A stretch of 64,000 nucleotides of DNA from Reclinomonas americana ATCC 50394 (taxonomy: Eukaryota), in contig PS015010.1 in NCBI GenBank assembly GCA_048213135.1, forward strand, positions 744,001 to 808,000. Reading direction: 5' to 3'. Under the pieces are notes generated by a model. That model did no database searches. It was not told the origin of the DNA and saw only the letters and a program-made list of their open reading frames with translations. Below, one piece after another: positions 8,462 to 15,377 of the stretch (the stretch's first letter is position 1; each line of letters opens with the position of its first letter). The translations under genes were made by a program, and so were the position numbers.

Positions 8462-8743
8462 CCTGGTCTCCCGACCAGCGGCAAATGGCCATACATCTTC
8501 GCTGGCAGAAATTTGCGGCAGGTACTATATTTACACCCACCTATGGGACTCCTCTGTGTCCTCCTTACCTCCGTGCATCTCTGTGAAAACCCCTCCGCGT
8601 ATCTCTGTGAAAACCCCTCTGCGCATCCCTGTGAAAAAATCTTATGAGAGGTTTGCAATCGTTGATGCCGCCTGGTCTCCCGACCAGCGGCAAATGGCCG
8701 TACATCTTCGCTGGCAGAAATTTGCCGCCAGGTCTTATATTTA
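8458..8743 (+). repeat. Pair of about 76-bp direct repeats (8458-8533 and 8667-8743), each beginning with a REP-like hairpin
   Basis: GCCGCCTGGTCTCCCGACCAGCGGCAAATGGCCRTACATCTTCGCTGGCAGAAATTTGC...TATATTTA occurs twice, 209 bp apart. Confidence 0.9.
8568..8639 (+). repeat. Three 24-bp CTCTGTG-type tandem repeats
   Basis: CCTCYGYGYATCYCTGTGAAAA x3. An inverted two-unit copy lies at 10679-10725. Confidence 0.85.
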
Positions 8744-9955: not shown

Positions 9956-10630
9956 TTATCGTTCACGCGGTACAAAAGTAACAGGCTGCAGGAAATAAGG
10001 CTGCGGACCTGTCAAAACGCTGTCTTTTTTAAGCAGGAATGCTGTGGAAGAACCGTTCCATTCCGATTTTGGGCTAAGGCCCCATTCCGGCGGTATACCC
10101 AGGCGGATGGTGTAGTGCCCCGCCTGTGTTGCGGGTATAGTCAAATTTTGATTGAAAACACGGGAAAGTGTTTTGAGATATATTTCTGCTTTGTTTCTTT
10201 TGTAAGCAACTTTTTCATCGCCTTTGTTACCATCGCCAAACGGGTAAACACCGGTGCCGGGCACCCGCAGGCCCAATGCCATGCTGTAGGTAATGTTCTC
10301 CCCGTTTTTATTGAGGATGGTTACGCTGATGCTGTCTAATGTGCGGGGCGTAAATAGAACCGTATCTACGATTTTAAATGTGGCAATGTTAGCCGTACTG
10401 AAAAAGATAGTGTCCTTCTTAGCTCTCCACCTGCCATAATTGATATAGGAAGAAGATTCGCAGCCCTGCTCCCAGAAATAGTTGCCGTTGCTGTACAGCA
10501 GAACCGAAGCGGAGCACAGTCCGCCACTCATGCTGGCATGATAGTAAGTGTATGCGGGTTTTGCTGGCTTTTGCGCCGGGCTTTGATTATGGGCAATAAA
10601 AAGTAACAGCAACAGGAAACACGGTTTCAT
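9956..10630 (-). CDS. Secreted hypothetical protein
   Basis: 224-aa ORF with an N-terminal signal peptide, co-oriented with the GNAT gene. Confidence 0.7.
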   Translation of the reverse strand: MKPCFLLLLLFIAHNQSPAQKPAKPAYTYYHASMSGGLCSASVLLYSNGNYFWEQGCESSSYINYGRWRAKKDTIFFSTANIATFKIVDTVLFTPRTLDSISVTILNKNGENITYSMALGLRVPGTGVYPFGDGNKGDEKVAYKRNKAEIYLKTLSRVFNQNLTIPATQAGHYTIRLGIPPEWGLSPKSEWNGSSTAFLLKKDSVLTGPQPYFLQPVTFVPRER

Positions 10631-10678
10631 GATTGAAAACTAGGTCATTTTGCAGACATTTTGTTGACGAGGGGAAGG

Positions 10679-10725
10679 TTTTTCACAGGGATGCGCAGAG
10701 GGTTTTCACAGAGATGCACAGAGGG
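10679..10725 (-). repeat. CTCTGTG-type repeat, inverted copy of 8591-8638
   Basis: Reverse complement reads CCCTCTGTGCATCTCTGTGAAAACCCTCTGCGCATCCCTGTGAAAAA. Confidence 0.85.
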
Positions 10726-10863
10726 AAGTATAACGAAAAAATAGGTAATGCTGTTGCGGGAACTACGCAGGGAAGAAATACTCAGCAGATATATTTTCGG
10801 ATTGCAAACTTTACTAAAACCATCATGGTGCCATTCCAACTTAATTATCAGACTGCCCAAAGT

Positions 10864-10946
10864 AAAAGGGGAGGCATACGGATGAAAGTTCCGAGACAGA
10901 TTAAAGCGCCAGTTTTAATAGAGTTTGCAGTGACCTTCCTTTTTTT
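10864..10946 (+). ncRNA. Putative C4/CI-like antisense RNA or attenuator
   Basis: Closing stem 10864-10876 with 10931-10943 followed by a U-tract, and an inner CGGA..GAAA..TCCG hairpin. Segments are complementary to 10803-10820, 10950-10961 and 10966-10977. Confidence 0.55.
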
Positions 10947-10964
10947 CATTTTAATCTGTCTATT

Positions 10965-11255
10965 ATGCAAATCTCTAATTGTCAAAAGAATGCCCGGGGT
11001 AATCGTGCCACCGGTATTGATGAAAACCGGTATATAACCATTAAGAAAAAAGCCATCTGGCTTACTGCTGAAGAGGAGGAGTTTATACAATTTGTAAAAT
11101 TCCACGGCATTGAGCAACTGGCCCAATCCTTACGCATGATCCACGACCTGGCGCTGTACCACACCGACACGCCTTTTGACGCGGAAGAAAAAACGGCGCT
11201 GTTTGATTTGAAGGTATTGTGGGAAGGGTTGGAGAGGATGGAGTGTGAAACATAA
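10965..11255 (+). CDS. Small hypothetical protein (96 aa)
   Basis: ATG in AT-rich context and a helical-looking C-terminal half. It follows the structured leader. Confidence 0.6.
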   Translation: MQISNCQKNARGNRATGIDENRYITIKKKAIWLTAEEEEFIQFVKFHGIEQLAQSLRMIHDLALYHTDTPFDAEEKTALFDLKVLWEGLERMECET

Positions 11256-11283
11256 GTAATTGAACGATTGAATAGAGGTATCT

Positions 11284-11922
11284 ATGCAAAATAGTGAGGC
11301 GGAGCCATGGGGGTGGGCAGATTTTGAAGATGACAATATCCTGCGAACAGGTAAGCCAATTCTGATCGGTATTACTGAGTTCACTAAACTACTGGCGCCT
11401 TGCTTGTTGGCAGGTAGTGCCCAATCAAGAAAAAGTTATGTAGACCAATTGCTGGCCGCCCATGAATGGAACATATATTATTCCGACAGGCATTCCGGCA
11501 AAAGAGTGATGGGAGAGGCCGGTTCAATTGATTATCCGCATGAATTAAAAACAGCCATTGCGCTTGCCCGGCATGGTTATGATGTGCTGTTTGCCCCCAA
11601 ATGTATGTTCAAACGATCTGAAAAGAAATTCGACATTTTCATTGCTAAAGAACACATTTTGCTAAAGGCCGATCTTAAATATATCTCCAGTAAAAATCCG
11701 GATACCATTGCCAATAGGGTAAGGGGTGGTTCTTTCCAGGCGTCGAGGGTTGTTGTGGAAATAACTTCAGATATTAATAAGAAAGACCTGATCTCCGGGT
11801 TAAGAAGCGCTGCATTCAGAAATGACCAGTTACGGGAAGTATGGCTTTTTTACAAAGGGAAACTGTATATCCTTCCTGCAAGTCTTATAAAGAGTAAACG
11901 TGTTTCCAGTGCTATAAAATAA
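11284..11922 (+). CDS. Putative CdiA-CT/MuF-toxin-like PD-(D/E)xK nuclease (possible tRNase)
   Basis: HELKTAIALARHGYDVLF...KKFDIFI...ADLKYISSKNPDTIANRV...QASRVVVEI...EVWLFYKGKL matches the E...D...DxK pattern of CdiA C-terminal tRNase-type domains. Confidence 0.6.
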   Translation: MQNSEAEPWGWADFEDDNILRTGKPILIGITEFTKLLAPCLLAGSAQSRKSYVDQLLAAHEWNIYYSDRHSGKRVMGEAGSIDYPHELKTAIALARHGYDVLFAPKCMFKRSEKKFDIFIAKEHILLKADLKYISSKNPDTIANRVRGGSFQASRVVVEITSDINKKDLISGLRSAAFRNDQLREVWLFYKGKLYILPASLIKSKRVSSAIK

Positions 11923-11990
11923 AAAGGGCTTTCAGTGAAGCCCTTTTAAAGTTTTTGTCATTGGGGAACCGAATGGTTCAAGCCGCTGAT
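11921..11990 (-). ncRNA. Candidate small RNA (about 70 nt) convergent on the nuclease gene
   Basis: Perfect -7 box TATCTTTG on the minus strand (12002-11995), then a GAACC-ATTC-GGTTC hairpin followed by CCCA, then the terminator. There is no ORF in between. Confidence 0.4.
11922..11947. terminator. Bidirectional intrinsic terminator
   Basis: AAAAGGGCTT TCAGTG AAGCCCTTTT with A/T tracts on both sides. Confidence 0.85.
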
Positions 11991-12076
11991 GTCACAAAGA
12001 TAAGAATGAATTTAATACTATGTTCTTTTACACAAGATTATTTTCAATCGTTAACGTTTGTTAATAAGATTTGTTT

Positions 12077-13987
12077 CTACAACACAATATCTCCAATCTT
12101 CGTCGCCAGTGTACCCACATCATCAACAGTATGATTGGTACGGTTCGACATAATGGCGATGGAGAGGCCATTGTCGCGGTACACACGCAACTCGGCACGG
12201 GCGCCATTGAAACTGCCGTTGTGTTCTGCTACACGGCGACCACCAATGTCGCGGACTTCCCAGGCAATACCATTAGGCTGGTCAGATTTTACACGGTTCC
12301 ACAACACATTGTCGCGGGCAGCGGGTTTTACAATTTGTCCATTAAGTACCTTCCAGCCAAACATGGCCAGGTCTACAGCGCTCAGTTCTATGCCACCGCC
12401 AAACACTTTCCAGCTGTTGTTGCCGTAAGAGCTGCTGGAGTTATCGTCGTTATAAGGTTTGGCTCTTTCGTAGTCATAAGGTATGGAAGCAGTGGTAAAT
12501 TGTACCCGAAGTGTGCCCAGTCCGTATGGATCGGCTAACTCTGATTTTACGAGTTGTGAAGAGGTGCGGCCGGTCACTTTCTCCAGTACCGCGGCCAGGT
12601 AAGTATGCGCATGTGTGGAGTAGTTGCGATTGGTGCCAATGGTACAGCCGGGCAGCAGGTCGGCACTCCATATCTGCGTAAGGGCGTCAATGGCTTTGTT
12701 GTACTGCATCGTGGCAGGCTCCGGGCCATCGTAGTGCTTGATACAACCGAGATGAGCATACAACTGCGCTACAGTTTGGGTGTGCTTGGCAGGAATGGTC
12801 ACCACGCTGCCGTCAGACTTAGTTACATTGGTAAGATAATTTTTGATGGGATTATTTAGGTTCAGGCTTACAGATGTGCCGTTGCGCAATTTGCCTTCGT
12901 CCTGCAGTTTTACGGCGAGGGTGCCGCTGAACAGTTTGGACACGGAGGCGGACAAGTAGATGGTCTCTCCATGCGCCACCTTATTATCTTCCTTATCGGC
13001 AAAGCCAAAACCACGGCGGTAGATCATTTCTCCGTTGCTTACAATAGCCACGGAAATGCCGGGCAGGTTGTTGTCATTCTTGTACTTGGTAATAAGGTTA
13101 TCGAGTTCATCTTTCTTATTGTAATTGAAAATGGTACTGTTGTTGTCGATCCAGATACCACCATAGCGCATACCATCAGGTGTGGAATAACATTCAAAAT
13201 CAATGATGCGGTAACCCCGATCGCGGTACTCCCTCCAGAGGTTGGCATATTCCACTTCTGTACGGCCAGTGCGTACCTGGTAAGCAATGCCGGAACGTTT
13301 TTCACATACGAAAGCGTAACGCTGGCCACCATCTGTATACGAATCAAAATTGGTAACAACATAACCCTTACCAGTAAGGTCATCAAGTTTGGCCTGGTAA
13401 TCGTCGCGGTCAAGGCCGTGTACTTCTTTCCAGTCGGCGTTGTTGTGGTTTTTAACCCATATCGCTGCATAACGTATGCCGCTGCCGGTGGCGTACATTT
13501 CCAGGTCAATCATTTTACGGCCCTCACCTTTTTGTTCGGTAATGTAGGCCTCGTATTGGGCCTTGGTCATGTCGCGTTTGGATGACCAGCTGTAGCCTTC
13601 GGTATTTTTTATCCAGATGCCACCATAGCGCATGCTGTTGCCCACGCGGTAGCATTCGATGTCAACGGGGCGGTAACCCTTGGTCTTGAAATCTTCCCAT
13701 TTGTCGTGGTAAGCATCGCTGGTCATGTTGCGGTATTCGGCCCAGGCCCGGCCACTGCTGTTCTTTTCCCATACCATGGAAAAACGGGTGCCGCCCGATG
13801 TTTCGTACGCATCCAGGTCGATCATGATGTAATCCTTTTTATATTGCTCGAACTTGTCATGAAACGCGTCGTCGGTAAGGTCGCGGTACGACAGCCAGCC
13901 GATGTTTTTAGCAAAGCTGGGCTCGCCTGCATACGTCGTACTGACGAATACGGCGAAGAGTAATGTTGTTACAATTCTGTAAAGCAT
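12077..13987 (-). CDS. Serine hydrolase (beta-lactamase-like fold) with five N-terminal polyglycine-hydrolase-like (BTRD1) repeats
   Basis: Five repeats of about 50 aa (W...T...Y...GY...D..Y...RYxxIW). C-terminal SVSK (SxxK), YST and HNG motifs. Signal peptide. Confidence 0.85.
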   Translation of the reverse strand: MLYRIVTTLLFAVFVSTTYAGEPSFAKNIGWLSYRDLTDDAFHDKFEQYKKDYIMIDLDAYETSGGTRFSMVWEKNSSGRAWAEYRNMTSDAYHDKWEDFKTKGYRPVDIECYRVGNSMRYGGIWIKNTEGYSWSSKRDMTKAQYEAYITEQKGEGRKMIDLEMYATGSGIRYAAIWVKNHNNADWKEVHGLDRDDYQAKLDDLTGKGYVVTNFDSYTDGGQRYAFVCEKRSGIAYQVRTGRTEVEYANLWREYRDRGYRIIDFECYSTPDGMRYGGIWIDNNSTIFNYNKKDELDNLITKYKNDNNLPGISVAIVSNGEMIYRRGFGFADKEDNKVAHGETIYLSASVSKLFSGTLAVKLQDEGKLRNGTSVSLNLNNPIKNYLTNVTKSDGSVVTIPAKHTQTVAQLYAHLGCIKHYDGPEPATMQYNKAIDALTQIWSADLLPGCTIGTNRNYSTHAHTYLAAVLEKVTGRTSSQLVKSELADPYGLGTLRVQFTTASIPYDYERAKPYNDDNSSSSYGNNSWKVFGGGIELSAVDLAMFGWKVLNGQIVKPAARDNVLWNRVKSDQPNGIAWEVRDIGGRRVAEHNGSFNGARAELRVYRDNGLSIAIMSNRTNHTVDDVGTLATKIGDIVL

Positions 13988-14075: not shown

Positions 14076-15377
14076 TTACAGGTTGTATTTACGGAGTAAC
14101 TTCTCAAAGTTTTTTGACCTGATGAAATTCTGTTTCTTTTTGTTCACCTGTATCGATTCTAAAAAACCCAGATTCACCAGGGCCTTTATATCTGCTCTTG
14201 CTGTGAAGTTGGAAACGGTGAACCGCGACTCTATTTCCTTAATGTTCAGTACCCTTTCCGGGTCGTCGTACAATATCTTGAGTACCTGTGCCATCCTGTC
14301 ATTAACCAGTGGAATAGTTAAAAAGCGTGCGGACTGAAATACTTCTTTTTGTTTCCTGTTGATATATGTTCTCAGCGCTTCAAATGCCTTCTCCATGGTT
14401 TTGATATGGTAGGTTATGAAGTAACTCAGGTCATTCTCATCTGTTTCTGTGTATAAGTAGGCTTTCTCATATTGTCCTTTTGTATCCTGTATGATCCTTG
14501 AAATAGACAGGTATTCCGTTAGCCAGTATCCTTTTTTAAGCATGTACCAGTAAAACAAGGCTCTTGCTGTTCTCCCATTGCCGTCGGTGAAAGGATGTAT
14601 CCATCCGATCATAAAGTGAACGATGCAACCCTTGACTATCGGATGAATGAAGTTCTCCGTATCTGTGTTGCAAAATGTACAAAGGTCTTTCATTAGTGCT
14701 GATAATTCTGCAGCCGGGGGAGGTGTATGCGCAATTTCGCTGATACTGTGATCTACTACGTAAACCTCATCATCCGCATTCCTGAACCGGCCTTCGTCCT
14801 CATCATCATTCAGTGTTTTGCTGGTCATCAGTTGATGTACATGCAATATACTTTCCGGGGTTATGGCTTCATTCTTTTGCTGAACAATGTGCTTCATCGT
14901 GATGAAGTTGTTCAATATCATTTGTTCCGACCTGTTCTTTGGCTTTTGTTCTTTCTGGATCATTTCTTTCGCCTTTTTCCTCGTGGTATTGGCACCTTCT
15001 ATCTGGCTGCTGGAAATGGCTTCTTCCATAAGCGAACTGATCACGAATTTAGTTTTATCCGTTTCCGCAATACCAATATTGCTGCTGAGATTTCCCCCGA
15101 TGTGCAGGTCAAACTGGTGCAGCGCACGCAACATAAAATCGGTTATAACATAATGAAAATTGTATTTTCCAAAGCGAATGTTACTGGCCTTTATCCACCG
15201 GTAGTGCTTAACTGCATTCCAGACTTCTTCGGGGTTGTATTTGCCTGATTTGTATTTGATCTTATCCCAGTATAAATAGTTATCCTGGATATCCTTCATG
15301 ATACCTTCCGACTCCAATTTTACCATAAATGGTATGATGTCGCTTTCTTTTCTATATAGAGGAGCTTCTTCCAGCAT
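14076..15377 (-). CDS. Fic family protein with N-terminal inhibitory motif and probable C-terminal winged HTH
   Basis: HPFTDGNGRTAR catalytic motif, SSQIEG (S/T)xxxE(G/N) motif and a C-terminal VSNFTARADIKALVNLG helix. Confidence 0.92.
   Translation of the reverse strand: MLEEAPLYRKESDIIPFMVKLESEGIMKDIQDNYLYWDKIKYKSGKYNPEEVWNAVKHYRWIKASNIRFGKYNFHYVITDFMLRALHQFDLHIGGNLSSNIGIAETDKTKFVISSLMEEAISSSQIEGANTTRKKAKEMIQKEQKPKNRSEQMILNNFITMKHIVQQKNEAITPESILHVHQLMTSKTLNDDEDEGRFRNADDEVYVVDHSISEIAHTPPPAAELSALMKDLCTFCNTDTENFIHPIVKGCIVHFMIGWIHPFTDGNGRTARALFYWYMLKKGYWLTEYLSISRIIQDTKGQYEKAYLYTETDENDLSYFITYHIKTMEKAFEALRTYINRKQKEVFQSARFLTIPLVNDRMAQVLKILYDDPERVLNIKEIESRFTVSNFTARADIKALVNLGFLESIQVNKKKQNFIRSKNFEKLLRKYNL

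Follow-up and report, generated by a model that had tools for sequence, protein, structure and literature searches.

A structured leader family before a small Bacteroidota ORF: a candidate two-state switch in which one RNA strand has two partners

The locus described here raises the question of how the leader of a small open reading frame (ORF) acts when one of its internal strands can pair both with the beginning of the leader and with the start codon of the ORF. It lies in a 64,000-nucleotide stretch of DNA, called the window below (contig PS015010.1 of assembly GCA_048213135.1, deposited as Reclinomonas americana ATCC 50394, positions 744,001 to 808,000 of the forward strand), in which the small ORF begins at position 10965. 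A first-pass annotation had read the leader as a Bacteroidota version of the antisense immunity RNAs of phages P1 (C4) and P4 (CI), with two antisense segments silencing the small ORF and a nuclease-like gene behind it. Judged from comparison with homologous leaders, window positions ~10803-10977 are one copy of a conserved structured 5' leader family of ~190 nt, and we consider it probable (about 0.6) that this is a new cis-acting leader with two states, which gates translation of the small ORF.

Covariation in homologous leaders

One genome per species was pattern-scanned, yielding 74 loci with a relative of the small ORF in Dyadobacter (several per genome), Fulvivirga, Reichenbachiella, Agaribacillus, Cyclobacteriaceae, Aquimarina, Leeuwenhoekiella, Flaviramulus and, as a fragment, Pedobacter. 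A strict motif search found the leader core at 61 of the 74 loci, twice at one of them (L024), and these 62 copies plus the window form the alignment of 63 leaders (A3) to which the family-wide figures below refer. The 13 loci without the core included a variant leader (L067), decayed or truncated leaders (L080, L089) and a locus which had kept its ORF and lost its leader (L070), most of the others being partial ORF matches. The shared plan runs from a TAnnTTTG box through a1 (GCRAAC and a variable part), an A/U-rich region with a conserved ATG, and the motifs GGAGAGG, CAUA and CGGG-UGNAAGU-CCCG, to GAGACC, a variable hairpin, a', GUGA, CCUCUCC, a U-rich tail, a spacer of ~30 nt and the AUG with a2. 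In the window the parts are placed as follows.

10790..10797, + strand: putative Bacteroidota -7 promoter box TATATTTT, directly 5' of a1 in the aligned leaders
10803..10820, + strand: a1, the 5' strand of the long helix P1 (partner 10912-10929)
10825..11037, + strand: upstream ORF of 70 codons, spanning the whole RNA structure and overlapping the small ORF start out of frame
10826..10831, + strand: P2 5' strand UGGUGC, pairing with 10906-10911 (GCGCCA) in the minimum free energy (MFE) fold
10864..10874, + strand: closing stem 5' strand, core GGGGAGG at 10868-10874
10879..10893, + strand: P3 hairpin CGGA-UGAAAGU-UCCG, arms 10879-10882 and 10890-10893
10894..10905, + strand: b', exact complement of 10950-10961, overlapping the P4 5' strand
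10900..10919, + strand: P4 hairpin AUUAAA/UUUAAU with an 8-nt loop, placed by covariation and by fit to the covariance model
10919..10929, + strand: a', the shared strand (partner a1 or a2), unpaired inside the closed domain
10934..10947, + strand: closing stem 3' strand (10934-10940), then a U-tract; the U-rich tail is visible in the alignment
10950..10961, + strand: complement of b', 4-15 nt 5' of the ATG, in the window lineage only
10965..11255, + strand: small ORF, 96 amino acids, whose first 13 bases include a2 (10966-10977)

Five helices of this plan covaried across the 63 leaders.

a1:a', 11 pairs: 93.2% paired, 6 compensatory
a':a2, 11 pairs: 97.1% paired, 7 compensatory
closing stem, 7 pairs: 99.5% paired, 4 compensatory
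P3, 4 pairs: 100% paired, 2 compensatory
P4, 8 pairs: 82.7% paired (74.1% in shuffles), 7 compensatory

The observed covariation score and percentage paired were matched in 0 of 500 shuffles, the numbers of pairs and pair types being equalled by 0-30 of 500, while registers slid along the alignment were only 33-56% paired; RNAalifold selected a':a2 unprompted. Each strand also bound its own partner more strongly than the partner from another copy, as the following duplex energies show.

a1 x a': own partner -12.65, other copy -8.17 kcal/mol
P1 extension: own partner -9.34, other copy -4.82 kcal/mol
a' x a2: own partner -14.92, other copy -8.61 kcal/mol
closing stem: own partner -13.44, other copy -9.11 kcal/mol

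Cells that were not Watson-Crick pairs held G·U 257 times and A·C 31 times, and this excess of G·U argues for pairing at the level of RNA, on the + strand, and not for DNA repeats. The P3 loop was of GNRA type throughout the family (GAAA, GCAA, GUAA, GUGA, GAGA). Other possible pairings fared worse: covariation barely exceeded that of shuffles both for CCAUUU before the ATG with AAAUGG in the ORF and for CCAUUU with AAAUGG upstream of the closing stem, and GGUCU with AGACC, or the P3 5' half with UUCACC past the U-tract, had equal own-copy and other-copy energies or lacked compensation (judged partly by eye).

The building of a covariance model from homologous leaders, which the first-pass annotation had proposed, gave a model of the closed domain (R1) that recovered the window copy, as its single match in the window (75.9 bits), and 16 copies in five carrier genomes (6, 4, 2, 1 and 3), every one of them (16/16) directly followed by a homolog of the small ORF. 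With stricter filters, no match to R1 was found in 150 other genomes sampled evenly over the phylum. Five covarying helices, this ORF linkage and the alternative pairing at the start site are together the marks of a cis-regulatory leader.

All of the complementarities annotated in the window were recovered. The repeat finder gave 10803-10820 with 10912-10929 (I1) as an 18-nt match with 16 of 18 positions; 10919-10929 with 10966-10977 (a':a2) forms 11 bp with a bulged U at 10972 and covers the UG of the ATG at 10965-10967; and the GAAA-containing hairpin pairs 10879-10882 with 10890-10893 around the loop UGAAAGU. The proposed closed RNA domain, with its antisense strand inside, is likewise borne out by a', which has complements on both sides that covary in the 63 leaders. 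The closing stem is real, but had been drawn one base out of register, with two mismatches; the 63 leaders place it at 10868-10874 with 10934-10940 (7 bp, two of them G·U), extendable to 10864-10874 with 10934-10944 by using the U-tract. Pairing of 10894-10905 with 10950-10961 (I2), the second antisense segment of the annotation, is exact (12/12), beyond chance in the window and worth -15.6 kcal/mol, but it is not family-wide: the corresponding segments gave -3.56 kcal/mol with their own partner vs -3.08 with that of another copy, and b' is, as the alignment has it, a trait of the window lineage and not a feature of the family. The covariation expected for both segments was thus found for the a segments (a1:a' and a':a2) and not for the b' pairing. 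Of 300 shuffles of 10802-10980 that kept the dinucleotide composition, one held an inverted repeat of at least 12 without mismatch, and one an 18-mer with at least 16 matches. Further targets of a' in the window were not in excess, with 10 matches (at most two mismatches) vs 17.2 expected by chance.

A shared strand with two partners

Across the aligned leaders a TAnnTTTG box, which we take to be the Bacteroidota -7 consensus, lies 3-5 nt 5' of a1, and from this position we infer that the transcript begins at a1 or next to it. We propose that the 11-nt strand a' has two mutually exclusive partners, a1 and a2. In state A, a transcript probably starting at a1 would form a':a1, extended by P2 to a helix of ~22 bp, which would preclude the closing stem and leave the start codon free and the ORF translatable. 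In state B, a1 would be released, the closing stem, P3 and P4 would fold into a compact three-way domain in which a' is single-stranded, and a' would then be free to cover a2, so that the UG of the AUG and the codons after it are hidden. Bacteroidota are said to make little use of Shine-Dalgarno pairing, initiation being tied there to the accessibility of the mRNA, and initiation should therefore be blocked when a2 is paired. Candidate triggers of the change are the small protein itself, which might regulate its own synthesis by binding the conserved three-way core, translation from the upstream ATG within P1, or some ligand. In the window, the nuclease-like gene would share this control with the small ORF.

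The competition for the strand is built into the alignment, in which a1:a' joins columns 23-34 with 156-166 and the closing stem joins columns 100-106 with 171-177; these helices cross, and so the two should be mutually exclusive. The 3' strand of P4 is also the strand of the P1 extension, and in the alternative fold this strand and the P4 loop are taken over by P1 and P2, P2 lengthening P1 to 23 bp in the MFE fold of the window. In unconstrained folds from a1 to a', P1 had a median of 22 bp and at least 15 bp in 61 of 63 leaders, the two shorter cases both carrying a replaced a1. The G residues of a' face mostly C in a2 and mostly U in a1, so that a':a2 is stronger per pair and a1:a' gains by its length. 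Mean energies of the full leader, with and without forced helices, were as follows.

MFE fold: -46.6 kcal/mol
P1 forced: -45.1 kcal/mol
a':a2 forced: -43.1 kcal/mol
closing stem forced: -38.9 kcal/mol

In these models the ON and OFF folds are nearly balanced, being ~2 kcal/mol apart on average.

Several points weigh against the two-state switch. State A is the thermodynamic default as long as a1 is intact, which leaves the release of a1 unexplained, and a plain competition of two helices does not account for the conserved unpaired GCAUA, GAGACC and GUGAC or for the U-rich tail. The exclusivity of P1 and the closing stem is argued from topology, and a pseudoknot holding both is conceivable. The shuffle control ignores the kinship of the sequences and is not phylogeny-aware in the manner of R-scape. 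The single-sequence fold of 10802-10980 was not unusually stable beside its shuffled versions, z being -0.97 for the + strand and -0.03 for the - strand. The support thus comes from comparison and not from thermodynamics, and the window sequence by itself is insufficient to settle the RNA reading. None of the metatranscriptome contigs of X17 and X18, which derive from a ~95%-identical relative, reaches the leader: they are confined to the repeat at 10675-10723, to portions of the nuclease gene region and to a stretch downstream of it. The transcript start, its 3' ends and any effect on translation are accordingly argued from sequence. X6 and X7 do span the leader, but at 0-1 differences from the window they supply no natural variants.

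To our knowledge, few regulatory RNAs of Bacteroidota are understood. The leader family offers a covariation-rich natural case of a start codon gated by competition among a1, a' and a2, its many paralogs with differing boxes providing ready-made compensatory variants; it is absent from Rfam 15 and tied to small proteins without a known domain.

Other readings and known systems

Could the conservation reflect a protein and not an RNA, the gene beginning at ATG 10825? An upstream ATG lies ~23-30 nt from a1 in 55 of 63 leaders, and its frame is interrupted much less than the remaining frames, with a mean of 0.69 stops vs 3.29 and 2.16; it stays open to the small-ORF ATG in 38 of 55, and some database gene calls take it as an N-terminal extension. 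However, 17 of 55 upstream ORFs end before the small ORF, the core is read differently by lineage (WRGIRV vs ERHTG), the phase to the small ORF may be 0, 1 or 2, and conservation tracks base pairs and not codons, which makes plain coding very unlikely. Since the core frame and the phase vary in this way, the upstream peptide is not conserved; translation of the upstream ORF may itself be of importance, its ATG falling within P1 in 40 of 63 folds. The nine copies with a U in the variable P3 loop all read it where it makes no stop, or lack the ATG (9/9), a pattern which may be a clade effect only. Less credible even than coding is the reading of a1, a' and a2 as DNA-level repeats, that is, as sites of protein binding or recombination (as a set of operators, or as inverted repeats bounding an invertible element). 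Three copies of an 11-18-bp motif, two direct and one inverted, do lie near the promoter-proximal region, and invertible promoters are common in Bacteroidota, but the G·U-rich mismatches are not expected of DNA, the closing stem, P3 and P4 covary though unrelated to the repeat, loop variation stays within GNRA, and the inverted repeat does not enclose the conserved promoter box. No inversion joints of 10821-10911 were found in two DNA-type read runs, and a Bacteroidota inverton was rejected on the mismatches, the box position and the lack of joints.

The reading nearest to the first-pass annotation, that of an autogenous antisense RNA of the C4/CI kind, seems to us possible but doubtful. The closed domain would be released by termination at the U-tract and/or by processing and would act in trans on a1 and a2, the accumulated RNA shutting off the small ORF; if the protein is harmful, this would be a toxin-antitoxin- or immunity-like module. 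The layout that had been claimed is present insofar as a' is flanked by an upstream a1 and a downstream a2, but the second antisense segment is not conserved. The claimed identity did not survive the searches: positions 10300-11500 gave 0 matches at E <= 10 against the 4227 families of Rfam 15, a library which presumably contains the C4, c4-2 and c4-a1b1 models, and no relative of the ORF turned up in the viral, phage and plasmid collections searched. The whole window gave 0 matches to Rfam 15 at gathering scores (and no tRNA genes were found in it), and four homologous loci, searched at E <= 1, gave no match in the leader, only tRNAs and one chance miRNA row. Membership of the leader in an Rfam family, C4 and its relatives included, was thus not detectable, and with no relative of its ORF in the phage and plasmid collections searched the leader is not a member of the C4/CI group, despite the likeness of layout. 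No description of the motif was found in Rfam or in the literature consulted, including 2026 preprints on noncoding-RNA discovery, whose supplementary tables might list it.

Action in trans is favoured by the state of a', which is unpaired in the closed domain beside a 7-bp stem and U-rich tail, and by the strength of a':a2 over a1:a' (-14.92 vs -12.65 kcal/mol), a2 having C where a1 has U opposite G. Paralogs within a genome differ in their a-box and the same boxes recur across species; the cassettes are multi-copy, patchy and partly decayed, as selfish modules are, and one locus (L070) retains the ORF with a2 after loss of its own leader. CI and C4 are also named as suggested, related substrates of RNase P (PMC5499578). 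However, the closing stem with its ~65-nt interior is unlike the compact terminators at cassette ends, and the U-tract behind it drew no call from the terminator scan; in cis, a1:a' (~22 bp) would outcompete pairing in trans unless the 5' part were cut off; and two loci with the same a-box (L030 and L034) coexist in one metagenome-assembled genome (MAG), so that strict orthogonality fails. In contrast to type I toxins, the small protein has no hydrophobic stretch (see below); no RNA end was seen, X17 and X18 leaving the leader uncovered, and the collections searched gave no phage, plasmid or viral-contig context. A fuller version is more tentative still: the ~450-530-bp cassette may be a self-contained immunity module made from RNA of the same strand, in which the released three-way domain, with a paralog-specific a-box code, silences a2 and a1 of new transcripts in trans, the small protein is harmful and the translated upstream ORF is a sensor. 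If true, the cassette would be a Bacteroidota counterpart, outside phage, of P1 C4/P4 CI and of type I toxin-antitoxin control, and should the closed domain act in trans at all, antisense immunity of the phage type would reach a new phylum and setting.

Compared with known systems, the leader is nearest in layout to the RNAs of P4 (CI) and P1/P7 (C4), which are likewise compact and stem-closed, lie in the leader of the genes they control, and have an internal strand complementary to upstream and downstream sites of the same transcript, the downstream site governing a small first ORF. The P1 C4 sites are arranged as a1b1 and a2b2. C4 and CI are processed, with RNase P as the suggested enzyme, to stable trans-acting RNAs of ~77-79 nt, which for the window leader would be a prediction. 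They sit in immunity regions of phages or phage-plasmids, ahead of antirepressor or replication genes. The window family differs in its home (Bacteroidota chromosomal islands, not phages or plasmids), in its one conserved antisense segment, in a downstream target that is the start codon itself, and in an upstream site at the extreme 5' end that forms a ~22-bp helix in cis. For P4, PMC4825925 places seqA upstream and seqC downstream of the CI RNA.

Like translational riboswitches, the proposed two-state leader has a strand that can pair in either of two exclusive ways, the start site being hidden in one of them; its structured core is likewise conserved, with unpaired bases that do not vary, and it is tied strictly to one gene family (the 16 of 16 R1 copies). 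Unlike them, it matched no aptamer class in Rfam, its 5' end would itself be the anti-sequestor, and its target would be a small protein without a known domain, present in several paralogous cassettes per genome. In type I toxin mRNAs such as hok/mok/sok and aapA1/IsoA1, the 5' end takes part in long-range pairing and alternative folds hide or expose the start site, as in the window family, which also resembles them in its multi-copy paralogs and possibly in an overlapping upstream ORF (mok/hok); no antisense gene was identified here, however, and the small protein is not a hydrophobic peptide. Membership in the type I toxins was rejected on the Kyte-Doolittle maximum of the protein and on its AF2 model, which is that of a soluble three-helix protein. 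The IsrK RNA of Gifsy-1, as described in PMC4825925, is a short terminated leader RNA made from one promoter together with a read-through mRNA, and its pairing with that longer form alters translation of a small first ORF; the window leader would be alike in layout, but in IsrK the short form activates, whereas pairing in the window would hide the AUG.

The small-ORF cassette and its neighbourhood

The small-ORF family comprised 40 homologs, mostly of ~95 amino acids with an invariant C-terminal pattern. A search of 1.84 billion representatives gave 126 clusters, every one of them short, and no longer or fused form came to light in a search for such. The protein gave no match in Pfam, NCBIfam, PADLOC or PHROG, and of the 126 representative matches 71 were scanned with Pfam, 67 being empty and four being a truncated GT2 chimera or sub-threshold noise. 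Its AF2 model has a disordered N-terminus and three helices (pLDDT 69.9), for which Foldseek found nothing in PDB at E <= 0.001, and ESM Atlas matches were to unnamed Bacteroidota clusters only. The maximum 19-residue Kyte-Doolittle mean was 0.41. No relative was found in IMG/VR contigs, INPHARED phages or PLSDB plasmids. In metagenome contigs the only locus obtained for the small ORF was a weak one (L091, 30% identity), which was left aside, and neither this search nor that for the nuclease in genome contigs yielded informative relatives from the lineage of the window. The family is scattered over Bacteroidota and multi-copy in Dyadobacter.

Orthologous copies align as a sharp block of ~450-530 bp (27 alignments, three ortholog groups), similarity extending into the flanks in only 2 of 18 compared pairs, and among the Dyadobacter copies listed, 20 of 20 end in a compact hairpin and T-run of their own. 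Neighbours of the cassette vary and include DUF1016/YhcG nucleases (3), DUF5655 (3), DUF2809 (4), Fic, nucleotidyltransferase, McrBC, AIPR and a relaxase-like gene, which look like genes of chromosomal islands; the Fic and nuclease-like genes near the window copy, and the Fic, nuclease and restriction-type genes beside other cassettes, suggest an island-like setting, in which a compact cassette travels. Three tRNA genes lie ~1 kb downstream of one cassette (L026, 4233-4580, - strand) and may mark an island insertion site. A ACCGTTAGTTCAT box was seen ~45 nt upstream of the -7 box in L022, L047, L052, L055, L073, L075 and other Dyadobacter cassettes; outside the modelled transcript, it could be a regulator site or the edge of the cassette. 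Some copies were irregular: in L074 the a1 belongs to one box type and the a' and a2 to another, with loss of P1 (7 bp), L070 has its ORF and a2 and no leader, L080 has kept the closed domain and lacks a1 and the promoter, and L024 (2333-2528) carries a complete leader without an ORF ~400 nt upstream of a full cassette. These four are natural mutants, useful for the question of action in cis or in trans.

Behind the small ORF of the window two further features were placed.

11284..11922, + strand: nuclease-like gene, 212 amino acids, with a PD-(D/E)xK-like pattern, starting 28 nt after the small ORF
11922..11947, strand not assigned: two-way terminator hairpin closing the operon, from the terminator scan

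The 212-residue protein resembled Pfam CdiA_C (E 1.7e-4; 22.1 bits, below the cut-off of 26.6) and has invariant E, H, D and D.K residues; a search of genome contigs for the nuclease gave no match. No terminator-like site was flagged between the two genes in the window, which makes it probable that they are co-transcribed there as an operon. Nevertheless the nuclease is not a joint target of the switch in the family, as the first-pass annotation had it: the small ORF was found upstream of 0 of 16 nuclease homolog loci (Chitinophagaceae), which sets the nuclease outside the conserved family unit, and the Dyadobacter cassettes listed end in their own hairpin and T-run.

A small-RNA-like gene (11915-12003, - strand) converges on the nuclease gene, with a TAnnTTTG-type box at ~11995-12003, AUCRGCGG, a variable hairpin, a conserved CCCAAYGACAAAGA and the shared two-way terminator, whose better U-tract is on the - strand. 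It follows the window nuclease and 15 of 16 homologs (L001-L015, with differing flank genes), being absent from L016; one pair covaries (G-C to A-U, 2/16), and the wobbles are those expected of an RNA from the - strand. Rfam gave nothing for it at threshold, and the RNA might serve the nuclease as a partner or in the manner of an antitoxin. Beyond it lie a beta-lactamase-fold protein with five BTRD1 (polyglycine-hydrolase-like) repeats (12077-13987, - strand) and a Fic/DOC protein with a helix-turn-helix (HTH) domain (14076-15377, - strand). Upstream of the leader, tandem 23-nt units of AGGTTTTTCACAGGGATGCGCAG-like sequence occupy 10676-10721, with similar sequence at ~8530-8640. Positions 10675-10723 are matched, at high depth, by many unrelated contigs of X17 and X18, and the units therefore belong to a repeat dispersed in the lineage or the community.

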